A stretch of 64,000 nt of DNA from Eledone cirrhosa (taxonomy: Eukaryota). The notes under the pieces are model-generated. The model saw only the letters and a list, made by a program, of their open reading frames with translations, had not been told where the DNA came from and did no database searches. Made by a program: the position numbers and the translations under genes. Location of the stretch: the NCBI GenBank assembly GCA_964016885.1, contig OZ024758.1:29078001-29142000 (forward strand), in the 5' to 3' direction. Of this stretch, positions 5,875-63,288 are shown piece after piece; within the stretch, counting starts at the first letter, position 1; each line of letters opens with the position of its first letter.

Positions 5875-8448
5875 GACTGTGGAATATGGCAGTTAAAGGA
5901 CCCCACAGCCACAAATTTAAAAGCTTATTACTTGATGCTTTTGACAGTAAGGAAGAGCAATTAGAGACATACAATATAGAGGAACAGTGGGAATTTTTGA
6001 AAATTAACCTGCTGAAGGCAATAGATGAAATTTGTGGCTGGAGCAGACTTATAGGCAGGAGGAGAGTAACTTGGTGGTGGAACAGTAAGGTGGAGTCAAT
6101 CAGGGCCAAAAAGCAGGATGGGGGAAGTAGAGAACACTATCAAGTGGCCAGGAGGGAAGCTAGGAGACAAGTGTACTTTGCAAGAAGGGAAGCAGAGAAA
6201 AAGTTCAAGCATGTTCTACAACGTGAGGACTAAAAATGTGAGGTGTTCAGGATTGCAAGACAATGAATGTGTCAAGGAAAACAGTGATATTGTCGGGGAG
6301 AAGTGTGTCCGTAATGATGATGGTGTACTTGCCATCACTGATGCTGATAAGAAGGTAGCTTGGAAGTGTCACTACGTGAGACTACTAAATGAGGAGAATA
6401 AATGGGAAAAAGATAGTCTGCCCCAAATCGATCCAATAGAAGGACCAGCGGTGCAAGTTAAAGGTAGTATAATAAGGCAATCAAAGATATGAAGACAGGG
6501 AGGCAGCTGGGCCTTCGGAGATAGTTGCTGAGATGTTGAAGGCATCTGGAATGGTGGGACATACTATTGTCACCCGTATAGTAAACCAAGTAATACAGAA
6601 TGGGGTCATACCTAAGGACTCATCATAGTTAACTGCTACAAGGGTAAAGGAGATGCTCTAGATAGAGGAAACTCTAGAGGCATTAAGTTAGTTGACCAGG
6701 TCATGAAGGTCACAGAAAGAGTTATAGCGCAACAAATCAGAGATCAAATTGATCTAAATGAAATGCAGTTTGGGTTTGTCTCAGATAAAAATACTACAGA
6801 TGCTCTTTTCCTTGTACGACAACTACAGGAAAAGTACCTAGCTAAAAGTAAACCCCTCTACTTAGCTTTTGTTGACTTGGAGAAAGCCTTTGACAGTCCC
6901 CTACACTCCATTATCTGGTGGGCCCTTAGAAAGCTCGGAGTAGATGAATGGCTTGTGAGAGCTATACAAGCCATGTATAAAGATACAGTCAGCAAGGTTA
7001 GAATTAACAACGAATATAGTGAAGAATTTAGCGTAAAAGTCGGTGTTCATCAAGGCTCTGTCCTTAACCCCCTCCTATTTATTATTGCCCTTCAGGCTAT
7101 AACAGAGGAGTTTAAGATTGGCTGCCCATGGGAACTTCTAGAGGCAGATGATCTAACACTCATAGCTGACTTTATGGCTGAACTAGAGAAGAAATTCCAA
7201 ACATGGAAGCTTGGCCTAGAATCAAAAGGCCTTAAAGTTAACTTGTCTAAGACTAAAGTTCTAGTATGTAGAAAGGAAAATAGGGCACAGGTGCCCTCTG
7301 GGAAATGGCCATGCTCAGTGTAGGAAAGGAGTAGGTAGAAATTCCATTCTATATCCCAAATGCAAAGTATGGGTACATAAAAGATGTAGTGGGATCACAG
7401 GCAAGCCATCTAAGAACGTAGATTTTATATGTGGCCGATGCTCAAGTACAATAAGTAGCAAGTGCCCACAAAATACTGTCCAGATGGTTCCATAGAAATA
7501 GTGGACACTTTACGCGACCTGGGTGACAAAATCAGCAGTGGTGGAGGGTGTTCTGAAAGTTCAGTAGCCAGAGTTAGAACGGGATGGAAAAAGTTCAGAG
7601 AGCTTATACTGCTGTTGGCTACAAAAGGTTTCTCTCTGAAAATGAAAGGCAGGCTGTATGATGCTTGTATACGAACAACAATGTTACATGGCAGTGAGGC
7701 ATGGGCATTGTGTACAGAGGACCTGTGCAGACTAGAAAAGAACAAAGCATGCATGCTCCGCTGGATGTGTAATAGTAATATACATGAACGGCAAAACATA
7801 AATGAACTAAGTGAGAAATTAGGAATAAGAGGGATCAGATGCTGTTTACTCGAGAGAAGAATACGTTGGTACGGTCACGTGATGCGCATGAAAGACGACA
7901 GCTGTATAAAAAAGTGCAGGGCGATCAAAATTGAAGGAAGTTACAGAGTAGGTAGACCCAGAAAATCTTGGGATGACATAATAAAGTCCGACCTTGCACA
8001 CTTGCGCATCTCTAAGACAATGTCAGTGGATTGAGATTTTTGGCGCCATGCAGTATTACAGAATGTATTACAGTATTCCCTATGTGCAAAGTTAACCTAC
8101 AGTCAGTAGGCCCCTCCAAACCAAACACCCCAACCGACTCCCACCAACACCACCCTTTCTCTATAAAGTTATGTTGGTACCACAACATCCACTCCAAACT
8201 AATGAGATCGAATAGGTGTCATGACAAAAACACGCAGTCCACGCTGTAATGTGGCCGTGTAGGTAACATGGTAAAAAGTTCGCAGTCCACACTGTAAATT
8301 AGGTTGGTGTTAGGAAGGGCATCCAGCCATAGAAAACCTGCCAGATAGTCCTAGCGAGACACGGTCACCCAACCAATCTTGCCTCAAGTGGGACAACTCC
8401 CGTCTAACCCGTGCTAGCGTGGAAGATAGACGTTAAACGATGATGATG
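5875..8448 (+). mobile_element. 5'-truncated, decayed RTE-clade LINE (family A): RT domain, PHD-like finger, 3' UTR, (GAT)n tail
   Basis: ORF pieces QFGF, LYLAFVDLEKAFD, GVHQGSVLNPLLF, EADD (catalytic YADD altered), RWYGHVMR, GRPRKSW; stops and frameshifts. Confidence 0.93.
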
Positions 8449-9381: not shown

Positions 9382-9737
9382 GATTTGGTGTCACGAAAAA
9401 TGCACCCAGTACACTGTGTGTTGATTTGGTGTCACGAAAAATGCACCCAGTACACTGTGTGTTGATTTGGTGTCACGAAAAATGCACCCAGTACACTGTG
9501 TTGATTTGGTGTCACGAAAAATGCACCCAGTACACTGTGTTGATTTGGTGTCACGAAAAATGCACCCAGTACACTGTGTGTTGATTTAGTGTCACGAAAA
9601 ATGCATCAAGTACACTGTGTTGATTTGGTGTCACGAAAAATGCACCCAGTACACTGTGTTGATTTGGTGTCACGAAAAATGTACCCAGTACACTGTGTTG
9701 ATTTAGTGTCACGAAAAATGTACCCAGTACACTGTGT
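9382..9737 (+). repeat. 39/41-bp minisatellite, ~9 copies
   Basis: gatttggtgtcacgaaaaatgcacccagtacactgtgtt repeated, running into the retroposon motif gttaggaagggcatcc. Confidence 0.93.
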
Positions 9738-10030
9738 TAGGAAGGGCATCCAACTGTAGAGACCTTGTCAAATATGGAATGTAATGAGCAAGATTGGTTG
9801 CTCCAATCTGTCTGGTCATGAAATGTGATAGCAACCTAATTGATAGTGTGGGAAGGTAGATGTTAATGAGGTGAAACTGTCTGGCAGGCCATTTCAATAC
9901 CTATATCTTTGGGTAAAATGAAGTTTAAGCAGATGATGGTCAAAATATAAAGATAGTCAATTAACTCAACCTCATTGCATTACTGGTACTTTATTTTATC
10001 GATCTTGTAAGGCAAAACTAGCCTCAGCAA

Positions 10031-10442
10031 GATTTGAACTTCTTATGTCCACAAGAGTGTTGGTTACAAAGCTTAGCTAGATATGGTTCTGCCACAGCTG
10101 AACACATTGCTGCCTTTTCTCATTAAACTCTGCCAAGTCTGTTGTGCAGGGGTGTTCCAGCAGGGATTTGAACTTCTTATGTCCACAAGAGTGTCGGTTA
10201 CAAAGCTTGGCTAGATATGGTTCTGCCACTGCTGAACACATTGCTGCCTTTTCTCATTAAACTCTGCCAAGTCTGTTGTGCAGGGGTGTTCCAGCAGGGA
10301 TTTGAACTTCTTATGTCCACAAGAGTGTCGGTTACAAAGCTTGGCTAGATATGGTTCTGCCACTGCTGAACACATTGCTGCCTTTTCTCATTAAACTCTG
10401 CCAAGTCTGTTGTGCAGGGGTGTTCCAGCAGGGATTTGAACT
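10031..10442. repeat. 134-bp tandem triplication
   Basis: gatttgaact recurs at 10031, 10165, 10299, 10433 with near-identical intervening sequence. Confidence 0.95.
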
Positions 10443-27642: not shown

Positions 27643-28581
27643 GGAGGCACATGGCTTAGTGGTTAGAGCATTGGCCTTGCAATTGAAAGGTTGTGAGTTC
27701 AATTCTCAGACTGGGTGATGTGTTGTTTCCTTGAGCAAGACACTTTATTTCACATTGCTCCAGTTTACTCAGCTGTAGAAATGAGATGATAGGAACTGGG
27801 GTCCCTATCATTTCACTGTAAAGTGGTCATGGAGATGCCACGGCAAAAAAGCACCCAGCCCACACTGTAAAGTGGTCGTGGAGGTGCCACGGCAAAAAAG
27901 CACCCAGCCCACACTGCAAAGTGGTCGTGGAGGTGCCACGGCAAAAAAGCACCTAGCCCACACTGCAAAGTGGTCGTGGAGGTGCCACGGCAAAAAAGCA
28001 CCCAACACTCACTGCAAAGTGGTCGTGGAGGTGCCACGGCAAAAAAGCACCCAACACTCACTGCAAAGTGGTCGTGGAGGTGCCACGGAAAAAAGCACCC
28101 AACACTCACGGCAAAAAAGCACCCAACACTCACTGTAAAGTGGTCGTGGAGGTGCCACGGAAAAAAGCACCCAACACTCGCTGCAAAGTGGTCGTGGAGG
28201 TGCCACGGCAAAAAAGCACCCAACACTCACTGCAAAGTGGTCGTGGAGGTGCCACGGCAAAAAAGCACCCAACACTCACTGCAAAGTGGTCGTGGAGGTG
28301 CCACGGGCAAAAAAGCACCCAACACTCACTGCAAAGTGGTCGTGGAGGTGCCACGGGCAAAAAAGCACCCAACACTCACTGCAAAGTGGTCGTGGAGGTG
28401 CCACGGGCAAAAAAGCACCCAACACTCACTGCAAAGTGGTCGTGGAGGTGCCACAGCAAAAAAGCACCCAGCACTCACTGTAAATGAGGTTGGTGTTAGG
28501 AAGGGCATCCAGCTGTAGAAATCAAGTCAGAATCAGTTCCCGTCCCACCCTTGCAAGCAGGGGAATGATGATGATGATGAT
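27643..28581 (+). mobile_element. SINE family 2 with internal 49-bp tandem array (~14 copies, 27814-28480)
   Basis: Normal SINE head and tail flank cactgcaaagtggtcgtggaggtgccacggcaaaaaagcacccaacact units. Confidence 0.92.
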
Positions 28582-28965
28582 AATTTTTTCCTAAATTTTA
28601 TTTTTTCTCCCTAATTTACAGTAATAAATCCATAGATAGTCGACTTTTCAAAATATATTTTTTTAATATTGTTATATCTGTATAATTTTAGCAAACAATT
28701 CCTATTACCAGTATTTAAGGGAGGAGCGGTGGGGAGCAGTCAGTTACTTTTAACTATCAGCAGCATTTCACAAAAGCTTTGAATTCTTTACATTGCAATC
28801 CCATATACTATTCACCTAAATTTGTTTGAGCGAGGCTGCTAATTTTTTTTCTTCATTGATTTGTGTAAATGTCTGTACTGGAAAATTGGCTAATATTTGC
28901 TGTAACAACAAATTTGACAAATTAATGACAGAATGCTGCCATACAATCAAATTTTTAAAATAATT

Positions 28966-31576
28966 ACCTTATATACTCGAATATAAGTCACCACCAGCCC
29001 CTATACCTTATATACTCGAATATAAGTCACCACCAGCCCCTATACCTTATATACTCGAATATAAGTCACCACCAGCCCCTATACCTTATATACTCGAATA
29101 TGTCACCACCAGCCCCTATACCTTATATACTCGAATATAAGTCACCACCAGCCCCTATACCTTATAAACTCGAATATAAGTCACCACCAGCCCCTATACC
29201 TTATATACTCGAATATAAGTCACCACCAGCCCCTATACCTTATATACTCGAATATGTCACCACCAGCCCCTATACCTTATATACTCAAATATAAGTCACC
29301 ACCACCCCCTATACCTTATAAACTCGAATATAAGTCACCACCAGCCCCTATACCTTATATACTCGAATATAAGTCACCACCAGCCCCTATACCTTATATA
29401 CTCGAATATAAGTCACCACCACCCCCTATACCTTATAAACTCGAATATAAGTCACCACCAGCCCCTATACCTTATATACTCGAATATAAGTCACCACCAG
29501 CCCCTATACCTTATATACTCGAATATAAGTCACCACCAGCCCCTATACCTTATATACTCGAATATAAGTCACCACCAGCCCCTATACCTTATATACTCGA
29601 ATATGTCACCACCAGCCCCTATACCTTATATACTCGAATATAAGTCACCACCAGCCCCTATACCTTATATACTCGAATATAAGTCACCACCAGCCCCTAT
29701 ACCTTATATACTCGAATATGTCACCACCAGCCCCTATACCTTATATACTCGAATATAAGTCACCACCACCCCCTATACCTTATATACTCGAATATGTCGC
29801 CACCAGCCCCTATACCTTATATACTCGAATATAAGTCACCACCACCCCCTATACCTTATATACTCGAATATAAGTCACCACCAGCTCCTATACCTTATAT
29901 ACTCGAATATAAGTCACCACCAGCCCCTATACCTTATATACTCGAATATGTCACCACCAGCCCCTATACCTTATATATTCGAATATAAGTCACCACCAGC
30001 CCCTATACCTTATATACTCGAATATAAGTCACCACCAGCCCCTATACCTTATATACTCGAATATGTCACCACCAGCCCCTATACCTTATATACTCGAATA
30101 TGTCACCACCAGCCCCTATACCTTATATACTCGAATATAAGTCACCACCACCCCCTATACCTTATATACTCGAATATAAGTCACCACCAGCCCCTATACC
30201 TTATATACTCGAATATGTCACCACCAGCCCCTATACCTTATATACTCGAATATAAGTCACCACCAGCCCCTATACCTTATATACTCGAATATAAGTCACC
30301 ACCAGCCCCTATACCTTATATACTCGAATATAAGTCACCACCAGCCCCTATACCTTATATACTCGAATATGTCACCACCAGCCCCTATACCTTATATACT
30401 CGAATATGTCACCACCAGCCCCTATACCTTATATACTCGAATGTCACCACCAGCCCCTATACCTTATATACTCGAATATGTCACCACCAGCCCCTATACC
30501 TTATATACTCGAATATGTCGCCACCAGCCCCTATACCTTATATACCCGAATATGTCGCCACCAGCCCCTATACCTTATATACCCGAATATGTCACCACCA
30601 GCCCCTATACCTTATATACCCGAATATGTCGCCACCAGCCCCTATACCTTATATACTCGAATATGTCGCCACCAGCCCCTATACCTTATATACCCGAATA
30701 TGTCGCCACCAGCCCCTATACCTTATATACCCGAATATGTCACCACCAGCCCCTATACCTTATATACTCGAATATGTCGCCACCAGCCCCTATACCTTAT
30801 ATACTCGAATATGTCACCACCAGCCCCTATACCTTATATACTCGAATATGTCACCACCAGCCCCTATACCTTATATACTCGAATATGTCACCACCAGCCC
30901 CTATACCTTATATACTCGAATATGTCACCACCAGCCCCTATACCTTATATACTCGAATATGTCACCACCAGCCCCTATACCTTATATACTCGAATATAAG
31001 TCACCACCACCCCCTATACCTTATATACTCGAATATAAGTCACCACCAGCTCCTATACCTTATATACTCGAATATAAGTCACCACCACCCCCTATACCTT
31101 ATATACTCGAATATGTCACCACCAGCCCCTATACCATATATACCCGAATATGTCACCACCAGCCCCTATACCATATATACTCGAATATAAGTCACCACCA
31201 GCCCCTATACCTTATATACTCGAATATAAGTCACCACCAGCCCCTATACCTTATATACTCGAATATGTCACCACCAGCCCCTATACCTTATATACTCGAA
31301 TATGTCACCACCAGCCCCTATACCTTATATACTCGAATATGTCACCACCAGCCCCTATACCTTATATACTCGAATATGTCACCACCAGCCCCTATACCTT
31401 ATATACTCGAATATGTCACCACCAGCCCCTATACCTTATATACTCGAATATGTCACCACCAGCCCCTATACCTTATATACTCGAATATGTCACCACCAGC
31501 CCCTATACCATATATACTCGAATATAAGTCACCACCAGCCCCTATACCTTATATACTCGAATATAAGTCACCACTA
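28966..31576. repeat. 37/39-bp minisatellite, ~2.6 kb
   Basis: ataccttatatactcgaatat(aa)gtcaccaccagcccct; mixed unit lengths; source of the 578-aa pseudo-ORF. Confidence 0.97.
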
Positions 31577-35932: not shown

Positions 35933-36675
35933 AAGATGTAGCGGGATAGCAGGCAAACTAACAGGTAGGGAGAAATAGATGTACAGGGAAATTAGAAAGT
36001 AGAAGTCGCATTGATAGACACATTTTTCAAATGCAGGAGGGCGCTATAGAAGTGGTGAATAGCTTCCGGTACCTAGGAGATCAGATTAGCATGGGAGGAG
36101 GGTGTTCCGAGGCCATAGTATCTAGAATAAGGACGGGTTGGAAGAAGTTTAGGGAGCTGCTTCCTCTGTTGACGAAGAAGAGTTTCTCCCTGCGTACGAA
36201 AGGCCGGTTGTATGATGCCTGTGCGAGGAGCGCGATGCTGCATGGTAGTGAGACATGGGCAGCAACCGCAGAGGATATGCGACGGCTGGAGAGAAATGAG
36301 GCAAGCATGCTCCGTTGGATGTGCAGTGTAAATGTGCGTGAACGACCCAGCATAAATGTGTTGAGAGAGAAACTGTGTCTGAGAGGGATAGAATGTAGTG
36401 TACGGGAGAGGAGACTGAGGTGGTATGGACATGTGATGCGCATGGAGGATGACCGATGGGTGAAGAAGTGCCAGGAATTGCCAGTTGAAGGAAGACGTGG
36501 TAGAGGTAGACCACGAAAAACATGGGCGGTGGTGGTGAGAACAGACCTCAGATCATTGAAGCTCACGGTGGAGATGACGAGGGACCGTGACGAATGGAGA
36601 GATGCTGTGCTGAATAAGACCCGTCCCACCCTTGCAAGCAGGGAAAAGCGGACGTAAAATGATGATGATGATGAT
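35933..36675 (+). mobile_element. Young-looking 5'-truncated RTE LINE (family B), ORF2 C-terminus open (36031-36657)
   Basis: FRYLG..RIRTGWKKFRELLP..LHGSETW..LRWYGHVMR..GRPRKTW; CpG-rich; (GAT)n tail; TA-repeat flanks. Confidence 0.93.
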
Positions 36676-37278
36676 ATATATATATATACTTGCTGTTTCA
36701 CACATTTTTTTTTTGTAAGAAAATGATGATTGATTTTAAATCAGCGATATAATTTATGGAGAAAAACTCTGCATTTCAATATTACTCAATGTAAAATGTA
36801 ATGCATGAAAAATTGGAAAACATTATTTTTGATAATATATCAAATCAAATTACATTATTAAATCTTATTCTTATTTTGTTTCTTGTAAATAAATTTTTTT
36901 TAAATATCAATTCAAAACCTTTGTGAATAGGCATCATATCTTGTCATTTACCTATGGTTTAAATTTCATATAAATCAAAGGGAAAACATTTTCAGCTGGG
37001 GTTTGTGCCCCGGGGAACCCTAATAGGAGGTTTAACCCCAATTAGGGTGTTTTCATATTATTGAAATTTGCTGAAATTTTGTGTCCCCGGGGTACCTTTT
37101 GATTAAAATGAAATATACTTATCCAAGTACTCTGGGCAATGTATTTTCAGAATATATATGGTTATGGGGGTCTATCTCCAAAACTATAGGAGGATTTTGT
37201 GAACAAACAGACTTGAACTACAACTTTATATATATTGATATATATTTAATATGGTAACTATTTCTTTAACTACTTCAG

Positions 37279-42323: not shown

Positions 42324-43208
42324 TTAACCTCTTCAGTGCCGTAGATGAGATAACTCATCCTAACATGTTTTGAACTCATTTACAACATTTCATAACTTCA
42401 AAGTTATGAACTCATTTCCAACAGTTCATAACTTCAAAGTTATGAACTCATTTCCAACAGTTCATAACTTCAAAGTTATGAACTCATTTCCAACAGTTCA
42501 TAACTGCAAAGTTATGAACTCATTTCCAACAGTTCATAACTTCAAAGTTATGAACTCATTTCCAACAGTTCATAACTTCAAAGTTATGAACTCATTTCCA
42601 ACAGTTCATAACTTCAAAGTTATGAACTCATTTCCAACAGTTCATAACTTCAAAGTTATGAACTCATTTCCAACAGTTCATAACTGCAAAGTTATGAACT
42701 CATTTCCAACAGTTCATAACTTCAAAGTTATGAACTCATTTCCAACAGTTCATAACTTCAAAGTTATGAACTCATTTCCAACAGTTCATAACTGCAAAGT
42801 TATGAACTCATTTCCAACAGTTCATAACTGCAAAGTTATGAACTCATTTCCAACAGTTCATAACTTCAAAGTTATGAACTCATTTCCAACAGTTCATAAC
42901 TTCAAAGTTATGAACTCATTTCCAACAGTTCATAACTTCAAAGTTATGAACTCATTTCCAACAGTTCATAACTGCAAAGTTATGAACTCATTTCCAACAG
43001 TTCATAACTGCAAAGTTATGAACTCATTTCCAACAGTTCATAACTTCAAAGTTATGAACTCATTTCCAACAGTTCATAACTTCAAAGCTAGATGGGTTTA
43101 CATGTTTATTGACATGACGTCTGTCAATCAAAATAGTCATTTTACATGGAAAAAATCCTGGCACAGCAACTGTAGCTGTGTAAAATATACGTGGCAGTCA
43201 ACAGGTTA
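42324..43208. mobile_element. TTAA-flanked MITE containing a 36-bp palindromic tandem array (~20 copies, 42371-43086)
   Basis: TTAAcctcttcagtgcc ... ggcagtcaacaggTTAA imperfect TIRs; unit AGTTATGAACT-catttccaac-AGTTCATAACT-(t/g)caa. Confidence 0.78.
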
Positions 43209-43444: not shown

Positions 43445-43474
43445 AAAGACTTAAAAGGCGGTAAATTCTTCAAG
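43445..43474 (+). CDS. Candidate alternative 30-nt micro-exon of septin-7 (KDLKGGKFFK)
   Basis: ttttattttcaacctttcAG|AAA GAC TTA AAA GGC GGT AAA TTC TTC AAG|GTATGT; strong splice sites, no stop, phase 0-0 matching the intron between exons E and F; no homology support. Confidence 0.55.
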
Positions 43475-50929: not shown

Positions 50930-53778
50930 TATAATATATATGCACGTAGTCTATGTAATAAGATACATCTTTTTGCCTCCTACATCAAAAGTATTGACTC
51001 TGACTTCATTACAGTCTCGGAAACATGGGCACATTCCTTACTCTTTGATGGGGTTTTCAGCATAACTGGCTACAACTTGTTTCGTAAAGACCGCATTAAT
51101 CGTCGTGGTGATGGTGTAATGGTCTACGTTCGGTCAAATTTTCGGCAATTCCTTGTGTTGATTTGAACCAATCGCAGTAAGATATACGTATGACCATGAC
51201 AACACTGCTACTTGGAGTCTTTTACCGTCCCCCAAATTACCATCAGGACACTCAACTTTGTGATATCCTCAGAGCTGCTGCCAGGAAGACAGCCACTTAT
51301 GTTTTTATTGCAGGGGACTTCAATCACCCTGAGATTGACTGGGAAACCTTTCTTTGGCCGCAAAGTGCAAATGACTTCCTTGAGCTAGTGCTGGACTCGA
51401 ATTGGTCCCAAGTAGTCACCTCCCCAACAAGAGGTGACAACACTTTGGATCTACTCTTCACCGCTATTCCTGAAACGGTTATTAGTGTTACTACTGAGGA
51501 ACTTTTAGGTGACTCTGATCATGCTATGATCATTGCCAATCTGTCCCTCATGGGCAGTAACAAAAACCACAGCCATCTCCAAACTGCTCACTTTGACTGG
51601 AATAAAGCAGACTGGAACTGTTACTGCACCGAGCTGCAACGTCCAAACTGGCTTCAATTTTGCGACTCTAGAGATGTCAACACTGTACTCCAGAACATCC
51701 TGAACTCAATATGGACAGCATGTGCAGCATTGGTGCCATGTAAGCAGAAAAAAACCACCCCAAAGGTGCAATTTGGGAGACTGCAGCAGTCCGTCTTGCC
51801 AGGAAAGAACGTTGTAATGCTGAACGGGAGTACAAACTGCATAAATCAGATATCAAATAGGAAAAAGGGAAATAAATCATCCAACCATCTCAAACAGGTG
51901 ACAAAAAAGGCAGTGCTTAAATTTAAGCAGTGCATAGCAACCAACCTTGACAGTAAGGTGTTCTGGAAGTATGTATACTCAAAACAGAGGCCTCACTCTC
52001 TAGTTGGTCCTCTTCGAAATCCCCACACAAGCCAGATTACTGATGACCCCAAGGAATGCGCAGAACTCATTGCTGAATGCTATGCAGACATTTTCACTGT
52101 TGAAGACCAGAGTGTACCGTCTCCACCACCTCTAACATCAGGTTCTATTACAACTATGGAATTTACACCTGCAATGCTGCGACGTCACCTTAAAAATAAA
52201 CGCAACCATGCCTCTCCTGGTCTTGGTGTTACGTACCTGCTTCTTAAGCATGGTGGGTACTTCCTTCTGCACCAGCTATCGCGCTTCAATTCTGTCTGAA
52301 CAACAGTGCTACTCCAGAACAGTGGAAAACTGCCAGTGTCATTCCTCTGTTGAAAAAGAGTGACCGCACATCACCTGTGAACTATCGTCCAGTCAGTCTT
52401 ACTAGCTGCATTGCCAAACTGATGGAATCCTGCGTCAGAGAAACACTTTAGAGTTTCTGGAACTCTCACAGTCTTATCCGGCCCTCGCAATTTGGATTTA
52501 TCCCTAACTCCAGCTGCTGTGATCAACTTATCGAGTTTCTTGAAGACATCACCCGGATCACTGATGGCGGCTTATGGGTGGATGTTGTTTACCTTGACTT
52601 TGCTAAAGCTTTCAATTCTGTGCCACACAAAAGACTTATGGCAAAACTCTCTGCGATGGGTGTGAAGGATGATCTTTTTAACTGGTTGAAGTCCTTCATT
52701 CTCAGTCAAAGCGAGGTAGTCACGGTTCTAGTTACAGCATTCCTCACCGTATGAGATGTCATTTGGTGTACCACAGGGATCTGTTCTTGGCCCCCTTTTG
52801 TTTGTTGTATATATTAATGACATAGATGCCAACTTAAAGAATTCCACAGTACTAAAGTACGCAGACGACATCAAGCTGTACCTTGAGATAAAAAGGACAG
52901 ATCCTGAACACTATAGATCTTTCCTGCAATCTGACCTGGACACAATGCAACAATGGATCACGGACTGGCAACTCGAGCTAGCTGTGGACAAGTGCACCAC
53001 CATGCATTTTGGGAGTAAAAACCCAGCGTCCACATACTCCCTCCACAGCACTAATATCAAGAAGTCTTCTTGTGAACGTAATCTGAGCATTACGGTCAGC
53101 AGCGATTTGATTTGGCCGAAGCACGTCTCTAAAATTGTCAAGAAGGCCGAGGGTGTCTTATCATCACTCAGCAAGACCTTTGTCAGCCGCTCTCCAGATA
53201 TCTATTTAAAGCTGTATATAGCTATGGTGCGGCCACACTTAAAATTTGCATCACCAGTCTGGAACCCTTATCTTGTTCAGAGACGTGCAACCAAGTGAAT
53301 ACCCTCCATCAGGCATCTACCATACTCTGAATGCCTTACTTCCCTGGGCATGGATACATTGAAGCTCCAACGTCTGGCAACTGACTTGGTAAACACCCAC
53401 AAAATTATTAACCATGTTGCCAACAACAACCCTGAGCACCTTTTTGAATTCCATGTGGCTAACACACCTGGGCATGCCTACAAAGTCAGAAAACAGCACA
53501 GTTCCCATGACTTTCGGAAACATTTTTTCACACTCAGAGTTGGTGAAGCATGGAACAAACTACCTGCATCAGTTGTTAGCTGTCGAGACACTGCATCCTT
53601 TAAGGCCTCCATGCTTCCCGAGATTCGCCAACACTACACCTGATGTCCCTCCTCCATACACACGCACACATCTATTTCATGACTCGTACACTATTCACTT
53701 TCCTGACATTTCTATATTATTCTATGTACTATACATGCACCTTTGATGAGTTGTAGTGCACCTGAGCACTGTACACAA

Positions 53779-54826: not shown

Positions 54827-55905
54827 TTTAACCCTTTAGCATTTACATTACTCTATATATACTATTGTATTTTCACAGTAAAGGCTTTACCTCACATAAT
54901 ATCTCACATAACATTTACATTACTCTATATATACTATTGTATTTTCACAGTAAAGGCTTTACCTCACATAATATCTCACATAACATTTACATTACTCTAT
55001 ATATACTATTGTATTTTCACAGTAAAGGCTTTACCTCACATAATATCTCACATAACATTTACATTACTCTATATATACTATTGTATTTTCACAGTAAAGG
55101 CTTTACCTCACATAATATCTCACATAACATTTACATTACTCTATATATACTATTGTATTTTCACAGTAAAGGCTTTACCTCACATAATATCTCACATAAC
55201 ATTTACATTACTCTATATATACTATTGTATTTTCACAGTAAAGGCTTTACCTCACATAATATCTCACATAACATTTACATTACTCTATATATACTATTGT
55301 ATTTTCACAGTAAAGGCTTTACCTCACATGATATCTCACATAACATTTACATTACTCTATATATACTATTGTATTTTCACAGTAAAGGCTTTACCTCACA
55401 TAATATCTCACATAACATTTACATTACTCTATATATACTATTGTATTTTCACAGTAAAGGCTTTACCTCACATAATATCTCACATAACATTTACATTACT
55501 CTATATATACTATTGTATTTTCACAGTAAAGGCTTTATCTCACATAATATCTCACATAACATTTACATTACTCTATATATACTATTGTATTTTCACAGTA
55601 AAGGCTTTACCTCACAATATCTCACATAACATTTACATTACTCTATATATACTATTGTATTTTCACAGTAAAGGCTTTACCTCACATAATATCTCACATA
55701 ACATTTACATTACTCTATATATACTATTGTATTTTCACAGTAAAGGCTTTATCTCACAAAATATCGAATGTATGAGATTTTGATGCTATTTATTTTGAGA
55801 ACAATACCTTAGCATCAGTCTGAGTGGCCAGTTATGGCCGGTTTGAACAGAAAGAAGTGAGATAATTTTGGCTGGATATGGCCAGTTTAAAGGCTAAAGG
55901 GTTAA
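54827..55905 (-). mobile_element. piggyBac-type MITE with internal 72-bp tandem array (~13 copies, 54839-55760)
   Basis: ttaaccctttagcatttac ... ctaaagggttaa ends retained; period 72 (54841 to 54913). Confidence 0.92.
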
Positions 55906-59409: not shown

Positions 59410-59523
59410 GACACACATGCAAGACTTAAAAGATGTGACCAATAATGTACATTATGAAAACTATCGCTACAGTAAACTAGCCCCTGTCACTGCTGATGGA
59501 AAAGTTAAAGTATCTCTTGGAAA
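59410..59523 (+). CDS. SEPT7: Septin-7 coding exon H
   Basis: cttAG|G ACA CAC...GGA AA|GTaagt; [37 protein letters not shown](K); 114 nt. Confidence 0.95.
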
Positions 59524-61756: not shown

Positions 61757-61961
61757 ATATAATTTGAAATAGCTAGCTTTTGTTTTGGACTGAAACTTTT
61801 TTGTATTTAATTCGTACGAGTATTTTTTAAAGATTCTAAGATAACTTGATTTGGCCCAGTAATCTACTGATATCAAAATTAGTAGTATATTGAAAAATTG
61901 AAAAATAGGGTAGGGGGACGTTTCGTGATTTCGAGGGGCCGAAATGGGTTGAAAACCTTTG
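60013..61961. mobile_element. Non-autonomous hAT (Charlie-like) DNA transposon
   Basis: 14-bp TIRs CAAAGGTTCTCAAC / GTTGAAAACCTTTG (1 mismatch); 8-bp TSD CTCTACAG (60005-12) / CTCTACGG (61962-69). Confidence 0.8.
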
Positions 61962-62093
61962 CTCTACGGTTAGGACAATAGCACTAAAAACACTTTGTCA
62001 TTATAAATATCAAAAAATGTTCAAAATATCCAATGAGAGAAATGAATATTTGATATACTATATACTAAATTATCTTTTTTTCTTTTTTTGTAG

Positions 62094-62229
62094 GGACCCA
62101 CTTACACAAATGCAAGAGGAAAAACATGAACATGATGCTAAAATGAAAAAGATGGAAGCTGAAATGGAACAAGTTTTCGAAATGAAGGTTAAAGAAAAGA
62201 AGACCAAATTAAAGGACTCTGAAGCCGAT
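62094..62229 (+). CDS. SEPT7: Septin-7 coding exon I (coiled coil); gene continues past window
   Basis: tttgtAG|G GAC CCA...GCC GAT|GTgagt; [45 protein letters not shown]; 136 nt, SEPT7-type [12 protein letters not shown]. Confidence 0.96.
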
Positions 62230-63288
62230 GTGAGTTAAATTAAGTTTCTCTATACACGTCTACAGTATATAGTTATAAAGGACTCTGAAGCCGATGTGAG
62301 TTAAATTAAGTTTCTCTATACACATGTCTACAGTATATAGTTATAAAGGACTCTGAAGCCGATGTGAGTTAAATTAAGTTTCTCTATACACATGTCTACA
62401 GTATATAGTTATAAAGGACTCTGAAGCCGATGTGAGTTAAATTAAGTTTCTCTATACACATGTCTACAGTATATAGTTATAAAGGACTCTGAAGCCGATG
62501 TGAGTTAAATTAAGTTTCTCTATACACATGTCTACAGTATATAGTTATAAAGGACTCTGAAGCCGATGTGAGTTAAATTAAGTTTCTCTGTACACACGTC
62601 TACAGTATATAGTTATAAAGGACTCTGAAGCCGATGTGAGTTAAATTAAGTTTCTCTATACACACGTCTACAGTATATAGTTATAAAGGACTCTGAAGCC
62701 GATGTGAGTTAAATTAAGTTTCTCTATACACATGTCTACAGTATATAGTTATAAAGGACTCTGAAGCCGATGTGAGTTAAATTAAGTTTCTCTGTACACA
62801 CGTCTACAGTATATAGTTATAAAGGACTCTGAAGCCGATGTGAGTTAAATTAAGTTTCTCTATACACATGTCTACAGTATATAGTTATAAAGGACTCTGA
62901 AGCCGATGTGAGTTAAATTAAGTTTCTCTATACACATGTCTACAGTATATAGTTATAAAGGACTCTGAAGCCGATGTGAGTTAAATTAAGTTTCTCTGTA
63001 CACACGTCTACAGTATATAGTTATAAAGGACTCTGAAGCCGATGTGAGTTAAATTAAGTTTCTCTATACACATGTCTACAGTATATAGTTATAAAGGACT
63101 CTGAAGCCGATGTGAGTTAAATTAAGTTTCTCTATACACATGTCTACAGTATATAGTTATAAAGGACTCTGAAGCCGATGTGAGTTAAATTAAGTTTCTC
63201 TGTACACACGTCTACAGTATATAGTTATAAAGGACTCTGAAGCCGATGTGACTTAACTTTCTATACACATGACTACAATATATAGTTG
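62211..63288 (+). repeat. 68-bp tandem array (16 units) containing the septin exon I 3' end and splice donor
   Basis: gactctgaagccgatgtga at 62215, 62281, then every 68 bp to 63233. Confidence 0.97.

Follow-up and report, generated by a model that had tools for sequence, protein, structure and literature searches.

Tandem repeats in which the unit spans an exon-intron boundary and thereby reiterates its splice signal are known from amphioxus, where the excerpts of two papers describe them in the Adh3, globin (BflGb6/BflGb9) and troponin C genes (PMC3087553, PMC3902484). The name 'mirages' was coined for this amphioxus class, in which splicing is described as normal, array lengths as unstable and the edge units as escaping homogenisation (PMC3087553). 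The birth of exons or introns from mirages has already been proposed there as a hypothesis, with which the excerpted part of PMC3902484 agrees. For humans, the excerpted text of PMC1557585 lists minisatellites whose first unit spans the boundary, namely the 37-bp VNTR of F7 intron 7, LMNB2 (100 bp), PDGF (81 bp), CBS IVS13 and 6-16. The first donor alone is used in F7, LMNB2 and PDGF, two further donors are used in CBS and 6-16, and in the mutagenesis of F7 the most upstream donor wins (PMC1557585). A literature search whose coverage left out most subscription journals returned no report of this locus or of mollusc mirages, and the part of PMC13282606 available to us contains nothing on satellites in introns.

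Here, we describe an array of this kind in septin-7 of Eledone cirrhosa. The window is the whole stretch of 64,000 nt that was analysed (assembly GCA_964016885.1, contig OZ024758.1, positions 29,078,001 to 29,142,000, forward strand), and coordinates refer to it unless the contig is named. The array is a further member of the known class of mirages and donor-spanning minisatellites. Four of five mirage features are found here, namely a boundary-spanning unit, a reiterated splice signal, a homogenised array of inner units with a diverged edge, and a normal main mRNA, the latter being seen in one same-species contig, and contigs do not display minor forms. As in amphioxus, the unit size falls within the 10-160 bp given in the excerpts; unlike there, the host is a mollusc. 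The array also resembles the human F7 type, with the true donor in the first unit followed by identical pseudo-donors (4-25 copies in the human cases as excerpted, 14 intact ones here), and beside these features the septin-7 unit contains an AG that, with each donor copy, frames an in-frame 30-nt pseudo-exon. Our results suggest that one mollusc example is to be added to a known oddity, with the first of several identical donors also winning in an octopod.

Septin-7 and the anatomy of the array

The host gene is septin-7, given that the 45 residues of exon I are 98% identical to Octopus septin-7 and match solved SEPT7 chains. Two Octopus proteins were mapped on 184 kb around the window, which yielded 13 coding exons plus two alternatives for the last exon; the 13 together form an open frame of 597 codons. 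The features considered below are as follows, X4 being a sequencing run with the same species label.

59410..59523, + strand: exon H, coding exon 11 in the mapped long form (tblastn with P0003/P0002, AG/GT boundaries, loose end of the X4 contig)
62094..62229, + strand: exon I, 136 nt, ending in phase 0, encoding the first half of the C-terminal coiled coil; covered by X4 with 0 differences
62210..62275, + strand: unit 1, 66 nt, made of the 20-nt end of exon I and 46 nt of intron start
62230..62235, + strand: authentic donor GTGAGT, the 5' splice site of a 2,274-nt phase-0 intron; the X4 contig exits after 62229
62236..62238, + strand: in-frame TAA, reached if any downstream donor extends exon I
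62266..62295, + strand: first 30-nt pseudo-exon, YIVIKDSEAD, in no X4 contig (X4 depth 0 over 62240-62310, no joint listed)
62276..63227, + strand: units 2-15, 68 nt each, with an exon-end copy and a pseudo-donor GTGAGT in every unit
63228..63288, + strand: unit 16, degenerate terminal unit, with intact exon piece, GTGACT, a 7-nt deletion and the CAG acceptor changed to CAA (pairwise alignment)
OZ024758.1 29142504-29142649, + strand: exon J, beyond the window end

An initial sequence-only reading of the window had proposed a 16-copy array with a 68-bp unit, and this is borne out both by the 16 starts of the exon-end motif, the first at 62210, the second at 62276 and the others in steps of 68 nt up to 63228, and by TRF (period 68, 15.4 copies, 98% matches). 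Its count of fifteen GTGAGT donors and a last one reading GTGACT agrees with the unit sequences: donors 1-15 read GAT/GTGAGT and donor 16 reads GAT/GTGACT, so that 14 further GTGAGT follow the true donor. Donors 2-15 match the latter over the 20 exon nucleotides and the intron start, and this donor agrees with the consensus at 6 of 9 positions. Several finer measurements had to be adjusted. The shared exon piece, given as 19 nt, is 20 nt long (62210-62229). The GT..AG segment of 38 nt holds for the inner units, the first one being 36 nt because unit 1 has only 66 nt, and the intron obtained by skipping one unit, put at about 106 nt, has that length between inner units and 104 nt from the true donor. 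Fifteen 30-mers are indeed present as micro-exon candidates, just 14 of which end in GTGAGT. The translations YIVIKDSEAD (30 nt) and DSEAD (15 nt) were confirmed, both in phase 0 and stop-free, and the anatomy agrees with the view that segments of 36-38 nt are probably too short to serve as introns. Each unit offers six AGs, which define two in-frame stop-free pieces, one in-frame piece of 63 nt that contains a stop, and three frameshifts (53, 23 and 5 nt).

Units 2-15 fall into three types, with 9, 4 and 1 copies, told apart by two intronic positions, and the order of types ends A-A-B, twice over. Two variable sites among these 14 units, next to a diverged unit 16, are the pattern of concerted evolution inside an array with a diverged edge. 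Unit 16 is the sole old copy, with a donor weakened by a +5 G to C change and no acceptor AG. Selection on the exon piece of the inner units was considered and rejected, as both variable sites would fall in the 38-nt part with a chance of about 1 in 3. Three units folded as RNA gave a weaker structure than any of 200 shuffles (z +2.7), which gives no sign of a hairpin masking the pseudo-sites.

The array in reads and its local origin

We compared contigs from four of the 23 listed runs (X1, X4, X5 and X8) over 61790-62310, with three RAD-seq runs set aside; the stretch of the array compared with reads was 62210-62310. In the DNA run X1, the unit is collapsed into a 98-nt contig of depth 115.3, next to an adjoining single-copy flank contig of depth 11.1. 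The resulting ratio of 10.4, for which contig depth is a rough guide, is near the 11.75 expected from the assembly, so the array is present in the reads. An assembly artefact, or a greatly over-expanded array, is conceivable for units that are near-identical, the more so as X1 may be the assembly's own sample; we nevertheless regard it as extremely improbable, given that a separate de Bruijn assembly recovered the collapsed unit at this depth and that the array shows three unit types in patterned order together with a diverged edge. The reality of the array, on which the sequence-only reading depended, is upheld by that collapsed unit at about ten times the flank depth.

When the unit was searched against the 3.0-Gb assembly, with a search that skips very common words, it matched at the septin-7 locus only, which argues that the array was born there. 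An origin as a dispersed repeat or transposon was rejected on the same result, although such a search is no proof of rarity. The surroundings are rich enough in arrays to account for the position: in the 184 kb around the window, 17 minisatellite arrays (period of at least 20, at least 3 copies, at least 90% matches) have summed unit lengths equal to 0.5% of the DNA, and random array starts would put about 1 donor in 200 inside a founding unit, an estimate from one region that ignores selection. Since roughly 1 in 200 splice sites would lie in founding units by chance, no special cause is needed for the duplication of a donor; among 26 septin-7 boundaries tested, one is duplicated by the array.

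Other repeats of the window were recorded along the way. Six further young intronic minisatellites lie at 28965-31574, 42367-43087, 54840-55765, 27814-28484, 9382-9738 and 10031-10442, with units of 37, 36, 72, 49, 39 and 134 bp, respectively, and 95-98% matches; none of the six duplicates a septin-7 exon boundary. A high-copy interspersed repeat lies at ~61790-61970, just 5' of exon I, with a summed contig depth of up to ~110,000 in X1, and is present in the other three runs (X4, X5, X8) too. Broken frames at ~6070-8030, 35960-36740 and 51180-53640 resemble, by eye, LINE reverse transcriptase/endonuclease.

Splicing across the array

X4 carries the species label and study of X1 with a different sample; its tissue and library are not on record, and it behaves as RNA. 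A single 2,822-nt contig of this run (depth 48.5) covers exactly 62094-62229 with zero differences, and one of its loose ends matches the 3' end of exon H, the other the start of exon J, each over 30 of 30 letters, which makes it an H-I-J product. On the first repeat (62240 to 62310), the X4 contigs have zero depth and no listed joint. Because this contig joins exon I directly to exon J, the main mRNA seen uses donor 1 and skips the array, with the limits that X4 is a single sample known from contigs, from an animal that may or may not carry the array. Minor use of pseudo-sites would be compatible with these data, as assembly drops rare isoforms and a 30-nt insert would form a bubble that is removed. 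The possibility that the contig stems from a processed septin-7 copy was rejected, since exon I matches one place and X1 has one contig over the exon that runs on into the intron.

Two further runs come from relatives. X8, an RNA run with 7 differences in the 136 nt of exon I, has the same exon I-J junction as X4, which we did not count as a test because this relative may lack the array. X5 is a DNA run of another organism, in which one 495-nt contig has a single match at 62203-62240 and continues ~457 nt into the intron; no second match is listed along those ~457 nt (of which 30 letters of the end are shown), and the intron differs where the 30-nt acceptor would sit. Since a young array would be expected to collapse in assembly, as it did in X1, the X5 relative probably lacks it, and by these sequence comparisons the array is probably lineage-specific.

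The same picture holds on the protein side. Of 160 proteins compared, 114 carry the exon-end motif, 92 of which run directly into exon J, the remaining 22 being genomic read-throughs into the intron. None of the 114, which are from other species that probably lack the array, has an insert at the exon I/J junction. The alignment shows an invariant junction among homologues and is silent on its use in this species. The functional roles suggested in the sequence-only reading (added micro-exons, decoy sites tuning splicing) find no support in the X4 contig, which uses the donor at 62229 alone, or in the 114 proteins, 0 of which carry an insert.

Read-through into the array

That reading had also predicted that extension of exon I to a later donor hits a stop, and the read-through indeed gives D-V-S-stop. 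Later donors would yield exons of 202-1,154 nt with the stop two codons in; for donor 2 the exon has an ordinary size, 202 nt, and the distance from the stop is 57 nt to the junction made by this donor and 203 nt to the following one. In mammals, nonsense-mediated decay (NMD) follows a 50-nt rule. The stop position agrees with that rule, so transcripts from later donors would be NMD targets if this mammalian rule also holds in octopods.

Leaky pseudo-donors are therefore one alternative to silent copies: donors 2-3 would extend exon I over the TAA, feed transcripts into NMD, and let copy number tune septin-7 output. Besides the fit to the mammalian rule and the ordinary size of the donor 2 exon, the sequence of donors 2-15 is identical to the true donor and decayed transcripts would be invisible in contigs; human 6-16 and CBS, according to the excerpts of PMC1557585, use two pseudo-donors. 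We hold this to be unlikely, as the intron start is covered by no X4 contig and as identical downstream sites in F7 are described to compete only when they are a perfect consensus (PMC1557585, in part), while the donor here agrees at 6 of 9 positions. Moreover, reported leakage involves the nearest copies, so that total copy number would matter little.

The micro-exon parse and chance

The second alternative is a cassette in which at least one YIVIKDSEAD or DSEAD unit is included in the mRNA by means of introns of at least 104 nt, lengthening or kinking the coiled coil. Both options preserve the frame and are stop-free, as a micro-exon should be. The repeat itself is far beyond chance and its micro-exon parse is within chance. 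Tandem duplications that take in 10-30 nt of the exon and 30-70 nt of the intron were simulated at the other 12 donors of the gene. An in-frame stop-free piece of at least 12 nt arose in 2,770 of 10,332 (27%), and in 1,719 of 10,332 (17%) the acceptor of such a piece also scored -1.5 or more, the level of the weakest real one; these figures are rough, as the simulated geometries overlap and single donors range from 0 to 47%.

Acceptors were scored with a small model trained on the 13 real acceptors of the gene, which range from -1.5 to 11.8 when left out one at a time, with 10 of 13 above 3. The acceptor of the 30-nt option scores -1.1 to +1.4, at the 91st-96th percentile of 5,766 intronic AGs. 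It overlaps the three weakest of the 13 real acceptors, including that of exon J (-0.96), which in part favours the sequence-only reading, but ~240-540 AGs in the introns of this gene score just as high. It contains UCUC within a 7-nt pyrimidine run, and its last letters are CAG. The acceptor of the 15-nt option is poor (-5.9, 69th percentile).

Neural micro-exons are described in the excerpts of PMC8797185 as having UGC, CUAAY and a long AG-free zone. Like these eMIC/SRRM4-dependent exons, the pseudo-exon is short and frame-preserving, with a weak 3' site and UCUC in the tract (PMC8797185, in part). Unlike them, it lacks conservation and seen inclusion; the scanned array unit contains no UGC and no readable CUAAY, and its AG-free zone is short, with another AG 23 nt upstream of the 30-nt acceptor.

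The gene has a real alternative 30-nt exon at 43445-43474, so machinery for micro-exon splicing exists, and the array acceptor scores like the weakest real ones. We nonetheless judge the cassette very improbable. It is absent from the X4 spliced contig, which rare or neuron-limited inclusion would escape, and from all 114 homologous proteins, again from species probably without the array. Its parse amounts to a 1-in-4 to 1-in-6 chance event, the signals of the unit fall short of those of the real micro-exon (acceptor score 7.0, with UGC upstream), and the oldest copy has lost its acceptor. In addition, the exon I/J junction falls about half-way along 8sjj_C, an 88-residue C-terminal construct of SEPT7 with a solved structure, and is gap-free in the alignment from molluscs to insects, and an insert of 10 or 5 residues would shift the heptad register of the coiled coil.

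A minisatellite born at the exon I boundary

Very probably, then, the array is a minisatellite born at this locus that straddles the boundary between exon I and the intron of septin-7, with donor copies that are silent and neutral. The repetition of the splice donor is a by-product of a first unit that straddles the boundary. In such a scheme, a chance tandem duplication of ~68 nt at the end of exon I would have been amplified and homogenised by slippage or unequal crossing-over, and the copy at the 3' edge would have been left decaying. By analogy with human F7, the first donor may be favoured as it is met first and defines, with a strong acceptor, the normal 136-nt exon. The 30-nt pseudo-exons would be skipped, being short, with a middling acceptor and a branch point that must fit in 38 nt also holding the U1 site. 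The snapshot of tandem duplication offered in the sequence-only reading stands as an account of origin; the functional readings attached to it found no support.

A bolder version, which we consider decidedly improbable, sees in this young minisatellite up to 14 ready in-frame micro-exons, spliced in some neurons or leaking into NMD depending on allele length; the figure follows from each unit pairing a donor copy with an acceptor of exon J grade. If true, it would show a micro-exon of a septin coiled coil at the moment of its birth, and use of the pseudo-exons in RNA would make a direct case of exon birth from mirages, the model that the excerpts of PMC3087553 present as a hypothesis. The locus is a natural substrate for studying 5' splice-site choice outside vertebrates.

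Other features of septin-7

At 62126, exon I encodes His in place of the Arg or Lys of the aligned septin-7 proteins; here the contig from the same species has the genomic sequence, and the relative X8 reads G. The two alternative terminal exons lead to the C-termini AWSTFFRLKR and KKDKKKSIF, both of which are found in Octopus proteins. Between these last exons lies a 25.5-kb satellite (OZ024758.1, ~29157313-29182839) with a 48-bp unit in ~545 copies. The alternative exon at 43445-43474 (+ strand) is genuine and encodes KDLKGGKFFK. It is present in proteins P0003 and P0007 and absent in P0008 and P0009. Proteins from octopus, argonaut and other cephalopod-like ones vary in having it, and the six aligned non-cephalopod rows all lack it, which makes it a candidate for a cephalopod-specific micro-exon of the septin G domain.
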